Shown here piece by piece: positions 1-6,149 of a DNA stretch of 64,000 nucleotides (positions within the stretch are counted from its first letter, which is position 1; every line of letters begins with the position of its first letter). The notes beneath the pieces were generated by a model. It was not told where the DNA came from. It saw only the letters and a list, made by a program, of their open reading frames with translations, and ran no database searches. This stretch comes from Geopsychrobacteraceae bacterium (GTDB lineage: Bacteria > Desulfobacterota > Desulfuromonadia > Desulfuromonadales > Geopsychrobacteraceae), in the NCBI GenBank assembly GCA_963662315.1, contig OY759353.1:768001-832000 (forward strand), read 5' to 3'. A program made the translations under genes and the position numbers.

Positions 1-398
1 CTGACCGCTTCGGTTTGTCACAGCTTCATCAGTTGCGTGGTCGGGTTGGTCGTGGTGCAGAGCAGAGCTATTGTATTTTGATTCCCTCTGAAAATTACAG
101 CCATGACGCCGACCGTCGCCTTCAGGTTATGGTGCAGACCAACGATGGTTTCAAAATTGCCGAGGCCGACCTCGAAATACGTGGCCCTGGCGATTTTCTT
201 GGTACAAGGCAAGCGGGCTTACCCGAATTCAGGGTTGCAAACCTGGTAAAAGATCTCCAAATTCTTGAAGTCGCACGTAATGAAGCATTTGCCTATGTTG
301 CCAAAAGCGATAATCTAGAGACTCCTGAAGCTCAAATTATCCGGTCTGAATTGGTTAGAAGATGGGGGGGACGACTGGAATTAGCCGCTATAGGCTGA
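1..398 (+). CDS. recG: ATP-dependent DNA helicase RecG, 3' part (truncated by window edge)
   Basis: Helicase motif VI '[17 protein letters not shown]' and RecG TRG motif '[25 protein letters not shown]'; ORF runs off the left edge. Confidence 0.95.
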
Positions 399-434
399 TA
401 AGATAAACCTCTGACAAACTTTCAGGAGGCTGAT

Positions 435-1397
435 ATGAGAGCTGTTCAAGTTGAACAATTTGGTGAACCTCAAGTACTTAAAACTGTAGAAATGCCAAGT
501 CCTTATACATTAGAGCATCAGGTAAAGGTTGAAGTTAAGGCTGTTGGGGTTAATCCTGTTGATACATATATCAGAGCCGGTATTTATCCGCTAAAGCCTG
601 ATCTTCCATATGTCCCAGGAAATGATGCCGCTGGCATTATCTCTGAAGTTGGTTCTGGAGTACTACATCACAAAGTCGGGGATCACGTGTATGTCTTTGG
701 ACAGAATATTGGTGCCTATGCAGAGGAACTTGTCTGCAACCAAGCTCATGTTTATAGGCTGCCAGAGAATGTTTCATTTGTCACTGGTGCTGCCGTTGGC
801 GTTCCTTACACTACAGCGTTTTATGGGCTCATTTACCGCGCACAAGCGAAACCAGGAGAAACAATTCTTATTCATGGTGCTAGTGGCGCTGTTGGCTTGG
901 CTGCTATCCAGATCGCCAAGTCATACGGAATGCGCGTTATCGGCACCGCTGGTACTGAACAAGGTATAAGTTTACTCAAAGAACAAGGAGTCATTGCTGC
1001 TCTGAATCACCATGAGAATAATTATCTGGATGCGCTGGGTGAGCTGACATGTGATTGTGGCCCAGATGTTATTCTTGAAATGCTTGCTAATGTTAACCTG
1101 AATAACGATCTGAAGGTAATTGCCCGGCACGGTCGCATTGTTGTTATTGGGAATCGGGGCACGATTGAAATAAATCCTCGTGATACGATGGGGAAAAATG
1201 CATCTATCCTAGGGATGGCTGCTTTTAATGCTTCCAGGGCTGAGTTGTTTCAGATCCATTCGGCAATTTATTCTGGTCTTACAGATGGTCGTTTTAAACC
1301 GGTTATTCGTGTGGAATTACCATTGACCCGAGCAGCAGACGCTCACAAGCTTGTTATGGAACCCGGTGGAAACGGAAAGATTATTCTTGTCCCTTGA
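435..1397 (+). CDS. qor: NADPH:quinone oxidoreductase (zeta-crystallin/MDR family)
   Basis: 'GVNPVD', 'LPYVPGNDAAG', nucleotide-binding 'HGASGAVG', C-terminal 'GKIIL'; RBS GGAGG upstream. Confidence 0.88.
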   Translation: MRAVQVEQFGEPQVLKTVEMPSPYTLEHQVKVEVKAVGVNPVDTYIRAGIYPLKPDLPYVPGNDAAGIISEVGSGVLHHKVGDHVYVFGQNIGAYAEELVCNQAHVYRLPENVSFVTGAAVGVPYTTAFYGLIYRAQAKPGETILIHGASGAVGLAAIQIAKSYGMRVIGTAGTEQGISLLKEQGVIAALNHHENNYLDALGELTCDCGPDVILEMLANVNLNNDLKVIARHGRIVVIGNRGTIEINPRDTMGKNASILGMAAFNASRAELFQIHSAIYSGLTDGRFKPVIRVELPLTRAADAHKLVMEPGGNGKIILVP

Positions 1398-1484
1398 CCT
1401 TTTTAAGGGATATCTATCTAGGGGGTATATGAGATCGTCCGTTAGAAGGACCATTTGGAAACCTCAAATCTGGACGGTAATATT

Positions 1485-1512
1485 AGTTTACATAATATAT
1501 ATTATGCGACGT
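1485..1512 (-). promoter_or_regulatory. dif: dif-like XerCD recombination site (probable chromosomal dif / left junction of element)
   Basis: Minus strand reads ACGTCGCATAA-TATATA-TTATGTAAACT (11-6-11). The right arm and spacer match the B. subtilis dif as I recall it; the left arm has the GCATAA XerC core. Flanking core genes converge on this point. Confidence 0.85.
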
Positions 1513-1945
1513 TAAATATACGTCAATCCTTGGTGGGGTCTCTCGATGACCTCGCCACTCTCCAACCACCAACTTAACCCTAAAGTTACCCCTCTCGCTG
1601 ATGATCTGGTTGAAGTCTCCCTGACACTTCCGGATGATCTCGTTCATGACTTCCTCTTAGTCTTAGACTCACTGACCAATCTCGCCACCATTGTTCGAGC
1701 CAAGACCCGTTTAGCCAGGTACAAAGATAAAGCCGACGATATCCTTCAGGCCGAACGCTTCAAAGAGCGTGATGCTTTCTATGCTCGTGTCGTTAACCTG
1801 TACGACTGTCACATGGCTCGTGGCCTTAAACGTGATGCTGCTATCAAGCTGATCTCTAAGGAGCTACGCAAAGAAAAACATCCTTGGGCCTCGATCGAGT
1901 TGGTCAGGTCTTCTCTTGTTGCTGGTGGCCGGCCTCGTCAACGGA
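1496..1945 (+). repeat. ~450-bp direct repeat, copy A (partner 4034-4486)
   Basis: Direct comparison by eye: about 16 substitutions plus a 3-nt insertion in copy B. Confidence 0.95.
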
Positions 1946-1956
1946 GGAACTCATGA
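1546..1956 (+). CDS. Hypothetical 136-aa element protein (orf1), basic, with a possible helix-turn-helix-like C-terminus
   Basis: Retained in both copies with mostly synonymous differences; stop codon overlaps the rep start (ATGA). Confidence 0.8.
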   Translation: MTSPLSNHQLNPKVTPLADDLVEVSLTLPDDLVHDFLLVLDSLTNLATIVRAKTRLARYKDKADDILQAERFKERDAFYARVVNLYDCHMARGLKRDAAIKLISKELRKEKHPWASIELVRSSLVAGGRPRQRRNS

Positions 1957-2969
1957 ACTCCTCCGCTCCGATCCTTGCGGGGGCGTCCTGTAACACGCCC
2001 CCGCTAAATACAGAACCAACCCTTGATATTGCTACTATTCCTGAACAAAATCGAATAGTTATAGATTGGCTTGAAGTGACACTTCCTGACGAGTTTCGAT
2101 TGCAAAATAAATATCATTCCTTGAAGCATTATATCCGTATCTCTGGGGCTAAATTCAGTACTGCTCCCCGTGGCATGAATGGTTATTTGACCCGCATCAT
2201 TTACGGCAAAGCAGAGATTCTCATGGATGGCTCCGAAGGTATGGGCGTACACGTTATTCTTTCCGGTCAAGCCCTCCGGCAAATGGAGAATAGCCCTCTG
2301 GATTTTCTGCATTGGTGCCTCCACCATGATGGGAAGGTTTCCCGGATCGACCTTGCGTTGGATGATGTATCAGGCGAATTGACCCTCAATCGCGTTAAGC
2401 GTGCTGTTCGTGCTGGTGCTGCTTCCTGCAAGGCTAAACAGTATCGTCACATGGAAAGCGGTAAAGTCTCGACCGGTGAAGTCACTGGGGAAACTTTTTA
2501 TTTTGGATCAGCAAAGAGCGATACTCAGTATCGTATTTATGATAAGGCTGCAGAGCAAGGTCTAGATGGGCATTGGGTCCGCTGTGAAGGTCAATATCGG
2601 CATGAAAACGCTCATCGTGTCGCCCAGTTGGTCCATGCTGCAAAATTCGATATCGGCCCTATTTTCTGCGGTCTTCTCCGAGGCTATCTCAACTTCTTAA
2701 AGCCTTCGAAGACTGATAGCAATAAAAGCCGCTGGAAGGTCGCTTCTTGGTGGCTCGATCTTCTGCAAAGTGCTGAAAAGATAAAACTTTCCGTTCCAAA
2801 ACAGAAACCTACGATGGAACAGAAACTTAAATCGTTCACTAAACAAATGGCTCCAACTCTGGCAATGCTCGCAAGCTATTATCCTTCTCAAGTGATGAAA
2901 GATATGATGATGAATGGTAGATCCAGGTTAACTCAGGAGCAGCTAGAAATGTGTACGATTCCATTCTAA
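1953..2969 (+). CDS. Rolling-circle replication initiator, Rep_trans (PF02486-type; RstA/NicK/pT181 RepC-like)
   Basis: Motifs 'IDWLEVT', 'SRIDLALDD', 'GETFYFGS', 'RIYDKAAEQ', 'WVRCEGQYR'. ATG at 1953 with GGAGG at 1943-1947 is preferred over the TTG at 1884. Confidence 0.9.
   Translation: MNSSAPILAGASCNTPPLNTEPTLDIATIPEQNRIVIDWLEVTLPDEFRLQNKYHSLKHYIRISGAKFSTAPRGMNGYLTRIIYGKAEILMDGSEGMGVHVILSGQALRQMENSPLDFLHWCLHHDGKVSRIDLALDDVSGELTLNRVKRAVRAGAASCKAKQYRHMESGKVSTGEVTGETFYFGSAKSDTQYRIYDKAAEQGLDGHWVRCEGQYRHENAHRVAQLVHAAKFDIGPIFCGLLRGYLNFLKPSKTDSNKSRWKVASWWLDLLQSAEKIKLSVPKQKPTMEQKLKSFTKQMAPTLAMLASYYPSQVMKDMMMNGRSRLTQEQLEMCTIPF
1977..2004 (+). promoter_or_regulatory. Candidate nick-site hairpin (dso/oriT-like) inside the 5' end of rep
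   Basis: Perfect 10-bp stem GCGGGGGCGT/ACGCCCCCGC with loop CCTGTAAC. Confidence 0.55.
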
Positions 2970-3082
2970 CAATTTGCCGTTTATAGGGGAACGGCACTCG
3001 CGCAAGGGTTTCTTAACACTGCACTCCCCTACTCTTTCTCATACTGTCAGTTCTTGTAGTTCCAGCTGCTAGAACGATGCAT

Positions 3083-3112
3083 ACCGGTAGACTCTCTACT
3101 ACCGGTTTTTTT
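3083..3112 (+). terminator. Intrinsic terminator-like hairpin downstream of rep
   Basis: ACCGGTAG-actctcta-CTACCGGT followed by a T-run. Confidence 0.6.
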
Positions 3113-3127
3113 ATGGTGCGGAACAAT

Positions 3128-3404
3128 GCCGGTTGCGGTTGCGGGTTAACCCCGCACCGCACCGGCTTTAACCGCACCGCTCACCAATCCCGCTAGTTAT
3201 TTGCTGCTCCGCTACGCCATGCAAAACCATTTGTTTCTCTAAGAGAGACAGGCGCGCAACAGTTTGTAGCTACCTTCGTTTAGGTCAGGCGGCCCGCAAG
3301 GCCGAGCGACTGGGGACCCGCACGGGGTTACGTCCCCGTGTGGGGATTGGAAGCGATCCTGAACGACGGTAATAAGCCCCGATCTGTAACACTGGGGCGC
3401 TTAT
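3128..3404 (+). other. Hairpin-dense intergenic region (candidate single- and double-strand origin region)
   Basis: Stem-loops at 3128-3166, 3321-3340 (CACGGGG-ttacgt-CCCCGTG) and 3372-3404 (GCCCC-gatCTGTAACACt-GGGGC). Confidence 0.55.
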
Positions 3405-3418
3405 CTCAATTTTTTACT

Positions 3419-3452
3419 TTGACAATGGTGCTAGAAAAGTAGTACTACTTTT
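3419..3452 (+). promoter_or_regulatory. Sigma70-like promoter with an 18-bp palindromic operator upstream of the RHH gene
   Basis: TTGACA at 3419-3424; perfect palindrome AAAAGTAGTACTACTTTT at 3435-3452 covering the -10 position. Confidence 0.65.
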
Positions 3453-3476
3453 ATATTCCAACATGGAGGAAATATT

Positions 3477-3740
3477 ATGGCTCATGCTGACAGGAAGCAA
3501 TTTTCTATTTATTTAACTGATGAGCAAAACGAAAAGATTACTAAGTATGCTAAAAAGCTTGATATCTCAAAGCAAAGAATGATGTCAAATCTCCTTGATA
3601 TCGGTCTGGAAGATGTAGCAGTTCTTGATAAGATGGGCGTTTTGTTTTTAGGCGCAAGGGTTCGTGATCTAGTTCATAAGATCAAAAATGTTGACCCTGA
3701 TAAATTGGAGTCTTATTACGACGAATCGGAAGAGAGTTGA
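3477..3740 (+). CDS. Ribbon-helix-helix (CopG-like) DNA-binding protein
   Basis: 'RKQFSIYLTDEQNEKITKYAKKLDISKQRMMSNLL' has the beta-strand plus two-helix RHH pattern; RBS GGAGG at 3465-3469. Confidence 0.75.
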   Translation: MAHADRKQFSIYLTDEQNEKITKYAKKLDISKQRMMSNLLDIGLEDVAVLDKMGVLFLGARVRDLVHKIKNVDPDKLESYYDESEES

Positions 3741-3782
3741 CGTGTAGGTCAGTTTAATACTAGGATCTCAACCAATAAATGG

Positions 3783-3947
3783 TACAAGGACAGGTAACGC
3801 CAATTACCATATCTTGTATATGACAATTTGAACAGGAAAGCCCCTCAGAGCGCCAACTCCGAGAGGCTTAAACAAGGTGAAGCAGCAGAGCGCCAACTCT
3901 TTAGCTTCGTCGAATACCACCATCCTTCGGGGGATCAGGGGATTCTT
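3783..3947 (-). ncRNA. Candidate counter-transcribed antisense RNA with three UUGGCG-capped stem-loops
   Basis: Hairpin loops CGCCAA (+ strand) at 3798-3803, 3851-3856 and 3891-3896; minus-strand promoter directly upstream. Confidence 0.55.
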
Positions 3948-3952
3948 TTGTG

Positions 3953-3981
3953 ATCATATTTGTAATATGGGGATGTGTCAA
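3953..3981 (-). promoter_or_regulatory. Near-consensus sigma70 promoter firing leftwards
   Basis: Minus strand TTGACA (3981-3976), 17-nt spacer, TATGAT (3958-3953). Confidence 0.7.
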
Positions 3982-4022
3982 CCTCTCTCCTTCTTTGACG
4001 AATTATCAAAGAAAAACGAGAC

Positions 4023-4050
4023 ATTCAAAAACCTATATATTATGCGACGT
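4023..4050 (-). promoter_or_regulatory. Hybrid dif site (right junction): intact XerC arm and spacer, degenerate XerD arm
   Basis: Minus strand ACGTCGCATAA-TATATA-GGTTTTTGAAT; 17 bp identical to the site at 1496-1512, other arm diverged. Confidence 0.8.
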
Positions 4051-4083
4051 TAAATATACGTCAATCCGTGGTGGGGTCTCTCG

Positions 4084-4494
4084 ATGACCTCGCCATTCTC
4101 CAACCACCAACTTAACCCTAAAGTCACCCCTCTTGCTGATGATCTGGTTGAAGTCTCCCTGACGCTGCCGGATGATCTCGTCCATGACTTCCTCTTAGTC
4201 TTAGACTCACTGACAAACCTAGCCACCATTGTCCGAGCCAAGACCCGTTTAGCCAGGTACAAAGATAAGGCCGACGATATCCTTCAGGCCGAACGCTTCA
4301 AAGAGCGTGATGCTTTTTTCTATGCTCGTGTCGTTAACCTGTACGACTGTCACATGGCTCGTGGCCTTAAACGTGATGCAGCTATTAAGCTGATCTCTCA
4401 GGAGCTACGCAAAGAGAAACATCCTTGGGCCTCGATCGAGTTGGTCAGGTCTTCTCTTGTTGCTGGTGGCCGGCCTCGTCAACGGAAGACTTAA
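4084..4494 (+). CDS. Hypothetical element protein orf1, second allele
   Basis: Near-identical to 1546-1956: L5F, one extra F, one K>Q, altered last residues. Confidence 0.8.
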   Translation: MTSPFSNHQLNPKVTPLADDLVEVSLTLPDDLVHDFLLVLDSLTNLATIVRAKTRLARYKDKADDILQAERFKERDAFFYARVVNLYDCHMARGLKRDAAIKLISQELRKEKHPWASIELVRSSLVAGGRPRQRKT

Positions 4495-4649
4495 AGCATT
4501 ACATAAAAGAATTGTTCACCAAGCAAGTCGCCCCGTCCATGGCCTTTCTCTTTAAATATTACGGCCCTGAAACTATGGCCGAAATCATGACAAACGGCAT
4601 GTCTCGTTTAACTCAGGAACAACGGGAACTCTGTTCGATTCCGTTTTAG
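4487..4649 (+). pseudogene. Rep_trans C-terminal remnant
   Basis: 'FTKQVAPSMAFLFKYYGPETMAEIMTNGMSRLTQEQRELCSIPF' aligns with the Rep end 'FTKQMAPTLAMLASYYPSQVMKDMMMNGRSRLTQEQLEMCTIPF'; catalytic region absent. Confidence 0.8.
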
Positions 4650-4654
4650 AAAGG

Positions 4655-4858
4655 TTAATGATTTTCTGCAACCCAAGATTTTTCTATGCGATCAAAAACA
4701 TAATTCTTAACAATATTGCTACCGATAGGACCACCGATGCCTTCAATGCGCAGATCTCCTCCGGCATATTTAGATGACACAGCTTTGGCTTGTTCAAGAC
4801 TATTTGTAGATTCAACTAGTTTGCCATTGACGTAAAGGTTGTAAATGTAATCGGACAT
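4655..4858 (-). CDS. Small hypothetical protein (67 aa), possible element cargo
   Basis: ATG at 4858 preceded by AGGAG; converges on the rep remnant. Confidence 0.55.
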   Translation of the reverse strand: MSDYIYNLYVNGKLVESTNSLEQAKAVSSKYAGGDLRIEGIGGPIGSNIVKNYVFDRIEKSWVAENH

Positions 4859-5070
4859 TTCAACTCCTTGAGGCTGATAGCTATTCACGATGCTGATACG
4901 CTTAATAATTTATCAGAACATTTAGACATGGCAATCCTTCTGTTTTTTTCTGGATGACTGCAAATAAGCTTTCTGAAAACATCTTAATGATTGGGCTTCC
5001 CGCTTTCCAAGCAAAAGCTCTAGCCTGGGATTACAGGCTAGAAAAAATGGATAAATACATGGTGACAATA

Positions 5071-5103
5071 AAAAAGCCGACTTGTTGTTCAAGTCGGCTT
5101 TTT
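5071..5103. terminator. Bidirectional intrinsic terminator downstream of tRNA-Pro
   Basis: AAAAAGCCGACTTG-ttgtt-CAAGTCGGCTTTTT. Confidence 0.85.
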
Positions 5104-5106
5104 ACA

Positions 5107-5183
5107 TGGTCGGGATGATAGGATTTGAACCTACGGCCCCTTGACCCCCAGTCAAGTGCGCTACCAGACTGCGCCACATCCCG
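5107..5183 (-). tRNA. tRNA-Pro(GGG)
   Basis: Minus strand CGGGATGTGGCGCAGTCTGGTAGCGCA...CTTGA-CTGGGGG-TCAAG...GGTTCAAATCC...CCCGACCA; upstream TTGACA-17-AATAAT with a GC-rich discriminator. Confidence 0.97.
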
Positions 5184-5252
5184 TTAAACTTAACAGCGCC
5201 GCGAATTATTAATTATTCAATGTCGCTTGTCAAGGACAATTACCGTGTTTTG

Positions 5253-6149
5253 TTATTGGTTGGAATGTTTTAAGTCCGCGATAATTCCTTCGAGTAATCC
5301 TGAGTCGGAAACCCGAATGTGTTCCTGATTGAATTTATTGGCTAATGCTAGCAATATTTGCATGCCTGGAATAATAAGGTCTCCCCTGCCCGCTTCCATT
5401 CCTAGGAGTTGTTCCCTCTCTGTGATAGAAAGAGGCTGCATATAAGAGTGTATTTCGCTTAGCCAGCCGGTTGATATGGCGGAATTATTAATAAGGTCTA
5501 CATCGTACTCAGTAAGTCCAAGTTGCATGGCAGAGAGCGTTGTCACTGTACCTGCCGTACCGATTAATTCGTAGCGCATATGACCTAGTCCTGCGTTGGT
5601 AAGCCGCTCGACGAAGTCGTTCATTGTCATTTCAATAAAATTTATACAAGCTTCTGCACTGTCATACTCCTCACAAAGTCTAACCACTCCTAAAGGATAA
5701 CTATGTTGAAGTTTTGTCTGCTTATTTTGGATACAGATCAATTCCGTGCTTCCGCCGCCAATATCAATGATAATAGCCGTTTGCGGCATGGGATCCATTA
5801 CGGACAAGACGCCGCTGGTGGTCAGCATTGCTTCGGTGTCACCGGAAATAACGTCGAGTCTGATTCCTGTCTGGTCATGTACTGAGTCAAGGAACTGTTG
5901 GCTATTTTTTGCCCTTCTGACCGCTTCGGTTGCCACCGCACGATAACAAGTAACCTTGGCCTCAGCCATTATTTGGCTGAAGTCTTTCAACGCCGCCAGG
6001 GTTCTGTCCATACTGGCATGATTAAGGCAGCCATTGGAAAATTGCCCAGAAAGACGCGTTACCTGGCGATGATAGAGCTGGGTTCTGTGTTGTTCGTCTG
6101 CGATTAGAAGTCTGACAGTATTGCTACCGACATCAATAGCTCCTAACAT
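5253..6149 (-). CDS. ppx: Ppx/GppA family exopolyphosphatase
   Basis: 'AIDVGSNTVRL', 'ATEAVRRAKN', 'DIGGGSTE', 'GLLEG'. Confidence 0.9.
   Translation of the reverse strand: MLGAIDVGSNTVRLLIADEQHRTQLYHRQVTRLSGQFSNGCLNHASMDRTLAALKDFSQIMAEAKVTCYRAVATEAVRRAKNSQQFLDSVHDQTGIRLDVISGDTEAMLTTSGVLSVMDPMPQTAIIIDIGGGSTELICIQNKQTKLQHSYPLGVVRLCEEYDSAEACINFIEMTMNDFVERLTNAGLGHMRYELIGTAGTVTTLSAMQLGLTEYDVDLINNSAISTGWLSEIHSYMQPLSITEREQLLGMEAGRGDLIIPGMQILLALANKFNQEHIRVSDSGLLEGIIADLKHSNQ

Follow-up and report, generated by a model that had tools for sequence, protein, structure and literature searches.

The replication origin of plasmid pT181 lies inside its initiator gene, repC, and the ICEBs1 nick site reportedly falls within the 5' end of nicK. 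In the origins of pT181 and pC221, whose initiators RepC and RepD belong to the same family (PF02486, Rep_trans) as RepSTK1 of pSTK1, ICRII is the nick hairpin and ICRIII the binding site; the nick falls in the loop of a conserved plus-strand hairpin, and the nick core is shared within the family, specificity residing in the flanking site (PMC4797284, PMC1851628, in the passages cited here). The origins of transfer (oriT) of ICEBs1, ICESt3 and Tn916, which belong to the MOBT group, have a GC-rich repeat of about 7 bp, a 12-nt loop and a nick within a TAA-containing core; the cited part of PMC9371924 locates the MOBT/Rep_trans nic site at a CT'AA that a GC-rich hairpin presents in its loop, the ICESt3 hairpin being a 7-bp repeat around 12 nt. 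CTXphi/RS1 and TLCphi of Vibrio cholerae are integrase-less residents of dif that form tandem or mixed arrays with filamentous prophages (PMC4246890, in the part cited), and the CTXphi initiator is among the Rep_trans proteins named in the cited part of PMC5714925. Here we describe a 64-kb stretch of the genome of a Geopsychrobacteraceae bacterium (contig OY759353.1, positions 768,001 to 832,000; hereafter the window), in which a small element at a dif-type site contains a Rep_trans gene (rep) and two GC hairpins sharing the 9-mer CTGTAACAC: hairpin 1 (1977..2004, plus strand) inside rep, and hairpin 2 (3372..3404, plus strand) downstream of it.

[quoted passage not shown] Like the pT181 and pC221 origins, hairpin 1 would be nicked in a conserved plus-strand loop; unlike them, the element is integrated at dif rather than being a free Gram-positive plasmid, its loop reads GTAA, and no ICRIII-like repeat abuts hairpin 1, the nearest inverted repeat lying 30 nt away. 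The MOBT sites resemble hairpin 1 in build, and several relatives of the element have CTAAC loops; however, the MOBT sites serve conjugation by relaxases with a type IV secretion system, whereas the present element has no transfer genes, and the ICESt3 site is intergenic, whereas hairpin 1 is inside rep. From CTXphi/RS1 and TLCphi the element differs in its host order, its smaller unit (1.9-2.5 kb), its unrelated accessory genes and its origin embedded in rep, and an origin-type hairpin of a second lineage is not described for those phages in the portions of the literature compared.

Hairpin 1 and the Rep protein

The 9-mer CTGTAACAC was found at 1988-1996 and 3384-3392, on the plus strand in both cases and 1396 bp apart, exactly where an earlier note on this DNA had placed it. 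No further match was present on either strand of the window (0.21 expected; two copies were reached in 2 of 100 shuffles), and the complete 4.7-Mb genome (G000; G labels denote genomes of the bacterial order and L labels homologous loci) contained 19 copies, with no stem seen in the printed context of the other 17. A scan of both strands of the 64 kb for origin-type hairpins (stems of 5 bp or more, 4 or more of the pairs being G-C; loops of 6-16 nt with a TAAC-type core), whose criteria were chosen after the data were seen, returned hairpins 1 and 2 alone, compared with a mean of 0.42 per 64 kb, or about 0.02 per 2.5 kb, in mononucleotide shuffles.

Hairpin 1 covers rep codons 9-18 (ATG at 1953); its stem of 10 bp is perfect (1977-1986 paired with 1995-2004) and closes a loop of 8 nt. 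The earlier description of a perfect 10-bp stem-loop inside the rep 5' end was borne out by the DNA fold, which had an energy of -14.3 kcal/mol (z = -6.9; 0 of 200 shuffles as good). With G5C counted as the core stem, the loop is 12 nt long and the same sequence has the build of about 7 bp and about 12 nt known from nic sites. A near-identical hairpin was located at the same rep codons in all five close relatives (61-73% amino-acid identity), and the G5/C5 core was invariant in all six sequences, which also share the same ~10 bases 3' of the hairpin. In L072, a C-G pair of the stem is replaced by G-C in a compensatory change and the loop ends in GTAAC, while the loop of L073 has CTAAC.

The distant relatives (25-40% identity) included Rep_trans genes from Nitrospira, Oscillospiraceae, Chloroflexi, archaeal bins and others. 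A locus was scored as positive when the coding strand, no more than 120 nt from the inferred start of rep, had a perfectly paired stem of 6 bp or longer that included five or more G/C and enclosed a loop of 4-16 nt with TAA or TCAAA. After removal of duplicates that came from the own genome or overlapped (L001, L003, L004 and L006) and of two loci chosen by motif (L150 and L151), 145 loci remained, 131 of them with a rep 5' end, and such a hairpin was present in 115 of these 131. Control windows passed in 0 of 130 (+300), 1 of 129 (+540) and 2 of 121 cases (-400), and the opposite strand in 16 of 131. Because hairpin 1 is conserved in relatives, belongs to a family-wide class and has the published nic-site architecture, it is, as judged by sequence comparison, very probably the double-strand origin (dso) of the Rep_trans initiator. 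The cut is predicted, by analogy, at T1991/A1992, between rep codons 13 and 14. The proposal that one of the two hairpins is the dso thus holds for hairpin 1, by virtue of the Rep_trans gene and of the close and distant relatives, and its premise, that Rep_trans/MOBT enzymes nick in the loops of GC-rich hairpins, agrees with the site type described in the cited part of PMC9371924.

The rep gene itself (1953..2969, plus strand; 338 amino acids) encodes a Rep_trans rolling-circle initiator. PF02486 matched with an E-value of 7e-45 (153.5 bits against a cut-off of 29.6) and profile positions 1-199 of 201 covered, the Rol_Rep_N domain (PF18106) matched with an E-value of 1.5e-7, and the PHROGs match was phrog_453, a replication initiation protein. 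The closest solved structure was RepSTK1 (PDB 4CIJ; E-value 6.8e-37), in which D9, D116, R177, the catalytic tyrosine and E196, active-site residues as named in the cited part of PMC4797284, align with D38, D133, R194, Y196 and E212 of the present protein (numbering offset of about 2). The alignment indicates that Rep possesses the catalytic tyrosine, the neighbouring arginine and three acidic metal ligands.

An inverted repeat with 7-bp arms (2034..2059, plus strand), 30 nt 3' of hairpin 1, is a candidate Rep binding site; binding loci adjoin or lie near nick sites in the cited passages of PMC1851628 and PMC9371924. A palindrome of 12+12 nt follows hairpin 2 at a similar distance of 28 nt, and the like spacing of the repeats after both hairpins may mark binding sites or be a coincidence.

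The same genus contains a third Rep_trans lineage with its own rep-5' hairpin (L214 and L215 in G158; L206 in G156), which has an 8-bp C-rich left arm, a 12-nt GATAAC loop and the same AAATACAGA flank as hairpin 1. The only other Rep_trans gene of the own genome, 33% identical and located beside a tyrosine integrase and small helix-turn-helix genes (G000 3,740,498-3,744,394; L002), belongs to a different integrative element, and the GC hairpin was not present at this 3.74-Mb locus. The 16-mer around hairpin 1 occurred at two loci in viral contigs, neither in a GC hairpin context.

Hairpin 2 and its inovirus counterparts

Hairpin 2 pairs GCCCC (3376-3380) with GGGGC (3394-3398) around a 13-nt loop and is extended by four A-T pairs (3372-3375 with 3401-3404) beyond a 2-nt bulge at 3399-3400; the analogous nick would fall at T3387/A3388. 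Three other sites resemble it, each with a 13-14-nt loop ending in CTGTAACAC, a 7-bp stem and an A/T-ATC flank six bases after the motif. Two of them are the rep 5' ends of the inoviruses in G118 and G068, and the third is an intergenic site in the satellite L073, where an intact 7-bp stem lies in rep orientation about 50 nt before the promoter of a small regulator. From the loop core through the 3' flank, the window copy and the rep-5' hairpin of the G068 inovirus are identical at 19 of 21 nt. Among the four phage-type sites, four of the seven stem pairs covary with changes on both sides, and all four unpaired cells of the stem alignment belong to the window copy, whose left arm resembles the 7-bp consensus minus 2 nt. 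The other three hairpins have fold energies between -7.3 and -8.4 kcal/mol (z between -2.2 and -3.0).

Identity between the window Rep and those of the G118 and G068 inoviruses is only 24-25%, and the two phage Reps share 31% with each other; the common nucleotide core thus reflects a constraint on DNA and not on protein. Homology of the window to L005 and L007 ends at 3370/3371, directly before hairpin 2, whereas L071 is homologous again within orf87, beginning at about 3465. Hairpin 2 is thus situated in sequence that is not conserved, with a conserved module on each side; its own cassette, about 40 nt long, is located between the conserved folded block described below and the putative orf87 promoter. 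As a chance control, two flank-pattern scans of viral contigs yielded 39 and 7 loci, and none of these 46 had a stem of more than 4 bp around the motif or a Rep_trans gene. Hairpin 2 was also considered as a rep terminator and rejected: it was not called terminator-like, and a canonical terminator, a hairpin followed by a T-run, is already present 3' of rep at 3083..3106 (plus strand).

Several observations weigh against the favoured reading. Both window loops read GTAA and not the published CTAA, so that the CT'AA form of the nic site is lacking; CTAA occurs in L073 and several distant relatives, most Nitrospira-type relatives have GTAA or GTCA, and TAA is the common part. The fold of hairpin 2 reached only -5.1 kcal/mol (z = -0.8), 41 of 200 shuffles being as good, which means that the GCCCC/GGGGC stem-loop of the earlier note exists as a pairing but is not a stem above chance. 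In the register of the phage-type family the window copy forms three of the seven pairs, and it pairs in a register shifted by one. The motif was missing from this place in L005/L006, L071 and L072, and in L007 CTGTAACAC is inverted, without a hairpin, within direct repeats. Conservation of the motif in homologous elements therefore applied to hairpin 1 (five of five) and not to hairpin 2, which is absent from its place in four of the five. Additional copies of each locus's own loop 9-mer were not enriched among 115 relatives (4 non-tandem copies against 5.4 expected). The class of phage-type hairpins consists of four sequences, of which three defined the search pattern. The G068 site came from a pattern search of 233 genomes of the order, which gave 3 hits including the 2 that defined the pattern, and the reversed-pattern control gave 1 hit; the single new genome hit is thus about what chance would yield and is meaningful by its context only. 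Finally, neither a Zot-family match nor a second phage-type hairpin was detected in the own genome.

The non-tandem extra 9-mers were those of the window (1), L007 (2) and L109 (1, outside a hairpin). Since extra copies are not enriched and the second motif is absent from its place in four of the five close relatives, the dual site is no family trait. In L007, two direct repeats (5395-5435) containing the inverted 9-mer lie in the promoter of an unrelated small regulator; they are possibly an operator, or the motif may also be a protein-binding word.

The element at dif and its relatives

The left junction of the array is a dif-type site (1483..1510, unstranded) with two 11-bp arms and a 6-bp centre. 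Along the 4.7-Mb genome, the cumulative GC skew is highest at window position 1538, at this left junction, and lowest at 3.06 Mb, in keeping with a dif site at the replication terminus. The 28-bp site was matched at 95-100% identity in five of six same-genus genomes, next to the same flanking gene, and in the four same-genus genomes whose region was compared the arms were near-identical and were followed by differing inserts or remnants. The right dif arm recurs at 4040 and is present at each unit junction of the window and of those relatives having one. Integration by XerC/XerD may be supposed from this position alone. On the right, the array is flanked by a chromosomal tRNA-Pro(GGG) gene (5107..5183, minus strand), which likewise lies downstream of the dif region in same-genus genomes. 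In an Rfam scan of 1300-5300 (E-values up to 1), the tRNA was the sole real match, with none on either hairpin or on the folded block described below.

The full unit of 2538 bp (1496..4033, plus strand) consists of orf136, rep, a GC-rich non-coding stretch and orf87, and these three genes are its entire gene content; a recombinase and a coat or Zot gene were absent. Direct repeats at 1496-1948 and 4034-4489 (96-97% identity, spacing 2538-2541) mark the start of a partial second unit (4034..4649, plus strand), which contains a copy of orf136 (96-97% identical) and a rep remnant. This remnant (4425-4649) encodes only the C-terminal ~46 amino acids, which are 57% identical to rep residues 293-338, i.e., those of a different rep. 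The second unit has lost hairpin 1, and CTGTAACAC was absent from 4034-4649.

The first gene, orf136 (1546..1956, plus strand), is conserved in the unit, with homologues in L005, L007, L071, L073, L155 and L224; Pfam and PHROGs searches returned no family. Further downstream, orf87 (3477..3740, plus strand), which has a homologue in L071, encodes a weakly ribbon-helix-helix-like regulator (RHH_3, E-value 0.081, below the cut-off; phrog_4085, E-value 2.3e-5). It is preceded at 3419..3455 (plus strand) by a -35-like TTGACA (3419-3424) and the 12+12 palindrome (3432-3455), an inverted repeat; read from the sequence, they would be the promoter and operator of orf87.

Between rep and hairpin 2, a non-coding block of about 80 nt (3284..3364, plus strand) is predicted to fold. 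It is 84-86% identical to L005 and L007 (copies at L005 1817-1897 and at L007 5116-5198 and 8536-8599), and 6 of its 26 predicted pairs have compensatory changes among four sequences, while open reading frames differ between the elements. The block may be a single-strand origin, a packaging signal or a small RNA. In a blastn search with 2970-4033, it was recovered in the satellites L005 and L007 and in neither of the two inovirus prophages (G118 and G068).

The five close relatives differ in their arrangement. The same-genus genome G158 (L005/L006; Rep 72% identical) has four tandem units of 2437 bp, and the same-family genome G118 (L007; 73%) has one unit plus a second that is cut by an insertion sequence (IS) of the IS3 family. 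Three relatives are metagenomic: L071 (68%) has a full unit and a divergent partial unit, L073 (62%) has a unit of about 2363 bp, and L072 (61%) is a 1944-bp contig with a 55-bp terminal direct repeat, representing a circle or tandem of 1889 bp with rep and two small genes. The unit sizes of the relatives were 2437 bp (four in tandem), ~2518 bp, ~2363 bp and 1889 bp (circular). Since L072 has no orf136, this gene is dispensable in at least one lineage. The G118 satellite adjoins an inovirus prophage (Zot, E-value 8e-17; Coat_B, E-value 2e-10) with its own Rep_trans gene, and in G068, from another family of the same order, two dif-type sites flank an inovirus prophage, with an orf136 remnant next to it.

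The dif arrays also contain remnants of another replication protein with an HUH-type PHFH motif (L007 7932-8390 and L155 5849-6163; weak PF23343 match, E-value 2e-4), beside which low-complexity repeats (WRSMAINGD...) occur. In G155 (L224 538-1207), a deletion remnant between dif and tRNA-Pro retains orf136 and only the first few rep codons. This remnant was inspected for a nick-site footprint, which was rejected: the break lies about 12 nt after the rep ATG and not at the nick.

In contigs from three runs of one sample, position 1525 was joined directly to 5100, so that the entire array was missing; the depth was about 60% of the chromosomal value, the shorter side comprised only 30 letters, and several other continuations followed 1519/1520. 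The join may come from further strains or elements that have the dif arm in common, or may be an artefact of overlapping unitigs. In run X4, from a second sample, 3091-3331 lay on a 2135-bp contig with a depth of 348 against about 97, and a separate contig began at 3381. As these contigs break around hairpin 2, variant elements have the folded block in common yet branch on either side of the hairpin.

Mechanism, alternatives and meaning

By analogy with the described origins, Rep would bind, extrude hairpin 1 and cut the plus strand in its loop at T1991/A1992, and would then be carried round to reseal at the next copy of hairpin 1. Only unit-length products, from hairpin 1 to hairpin 1, would restore rep, because the site lies inside rep codons 9-18. 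Tandem arrays such as that of G158 would release unit circles from the chromosome; in the cited part of PMC4246890, circles arise by rolling-circle replication between the origins of neighbouring units in tandem CTXphi/RS1. Two intact, directly repeated origins are available in G158, with its four units, and are not in the window array. Here, release from the array would be closed because the second unit has lost hairpin 1, and Xer excision or replication of an already free circle would remain.

Hairpin 2 could be a cis site at which the Rep of a helper inovirus starts or ends strand displacement on the satellite, and the element would then resemble a phagemid. Another possibility is that its own Rep cross-reacts there through the shared nick core; according to the passages of PMC1851628 used here, Reps of one plasmid family share nick cores and cut one another's, and binding sites are replicon-specific. 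Present or recent use of hairpin 2 by either Rep is possible, if doubtful. As neither a Zot-family gene nor another hairpin of this type is present in the own genome, hairpin 2 probably stands idle there.

A somewhat unlikely alternative is that hairpin 2 is a dead relic, a fossil or recombination scar of module exchange with an inovirus or another dif resident, with no present function. The degraded stem, which folds no better than shuffles, and the want of a cognate phage in the own genome are what a relic would show; moreover, hairpin 2 sits exactly where the L005/L007 homology ends, the second-sample contigs break on both of its sides, and remnants abound in the dif arrays, including the truncated rep at 4425-4649, the orf136-only remnant of G155 and the IS-cut copy of L007. 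However, the conserved stretch is the hairpin plus about 10 nt of flank, which is the shape of a minimal origin and not of a gene fragment, the L073 copy, in the corresponding position, is intact and differs from G068 by compensatory changes in the stem, and both orphan copies (window and L073) are oriented like rep. It is highly improbable that hairpin 2 is unrelated to replication, as a chance match of the motif or as a terminator or upstream element of the regulator promoter. The weak hairpin does lie 15 nt before the -35-like hexamer, with a T-run 9 nt after it, the inverted 9-mers of L007 form direct repeats inside a regulator promoter, and a prior of about 0.02 for a 9-mer shared within 2.5 kb is not negligible given the number of features scanned. 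Nevertheless, the hairpin is not terminator-like and the canonical terminator stands at 3083-3106; chance would not be expected to produce the 19/21-nt identity with a phage origin, the geometry of the loop or the counterpart in L073, and none of the 46 viral-contig loci had a comparable stem.

The earlier note had proposed that the own Rep initiates and terminates at both hairpins, one of them serving as a termination or secondary site, and releases circles of 1.4 kb (bearing rep) and 1.1 kb (without rep), the smaller being a satellite of a satellite. Termination at pT181 reportedly needs less sequence than initiation, as Zhao and Khan are said to have found. The identical 9-mer core in the same orientation at both sites would suit such a scheme, as would the cutting of each other's nick sites in vitro by same-family Reps (PMC1851628, in the passages cited). 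A secondary site remains plausible for hairpin 2 insofar as its architecture is of the origin type and it is homologous to phage origins, but it is degraded and absent in four of the five close relatives, and a dual motif is not enriched family-wide. The 1.4-kb circle (1396 nt) would not be rep-bearing: a cut between codons 13 and 14 removes the rep promoter, the ATG and codons 1-13, and the frame on the hairpin 2 side is closed by a stop at 3373-3375. The left arm is G-rich in hairpin 1 and C-rich in hairpin 2; with this opposite stem polarity, both hybrid junctions are non-hairpin and cannot refold, and therefore neither circle, including the supposed satellite of a satellite, could re-initiate. 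The expected junction joining about 3390 to about 1994 was absent from the contigs of four runs of one study over 1-6000, although rare forms drop out of contigs, and the depth of the element equalled that of its flank (187 and 193, respectively; contigs of run X1). We thus regard the release of sub-circles as very unlikely.

Ff phagemids are engineered molecules that combine their own plasmid replicon with a phage origin used by a helper. The boldest reading of the present element follows this analogy, in that an own origin and a helper-phage origin lie in the same orientation. The dif mini-replicons would then be natural phagemids, their portable cassette of about 40 nt having been taken over from the origin of a filamentous phage residing in the same cell; the Rep of an infecting helper would trigger production and packaging of single-stranded DNA, or the satellite would soak up helper Rep, and the shared nick cores would act as module-swap joints at dif. 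We consider this reading unlikely.

Hairpin 1 belongs to an already known kind of origin, and the element is a small new IMEX/satellite; a limited search of parts of the literature found no published case of such a satellite with an orphaned origin-type hairpin from a second Rep lineage. Hairpin 1 provides a precise predicted origin and nick position for uncharacterised, tiny dif-integrated replicons of metal-reducing sediment bacteria. More generally, very distantly related Rep_trans genes, among them those of Nitrospira, Oscillospiraceae, Chloroflexi and archaeal bins, have as a rule an origin hairpin in the first rep codons, which is useful for annotation. If hairpin 2 is a relic, the finding amounts to an ordinary origin and a fossil. 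If a phage Rep does use it, the element would be a natural satellite carrying the origin of its helper, and this would suggest how filamentous phages and their satellites might sense helpers or interfere with one another, and how modules might be exchanged at dif.

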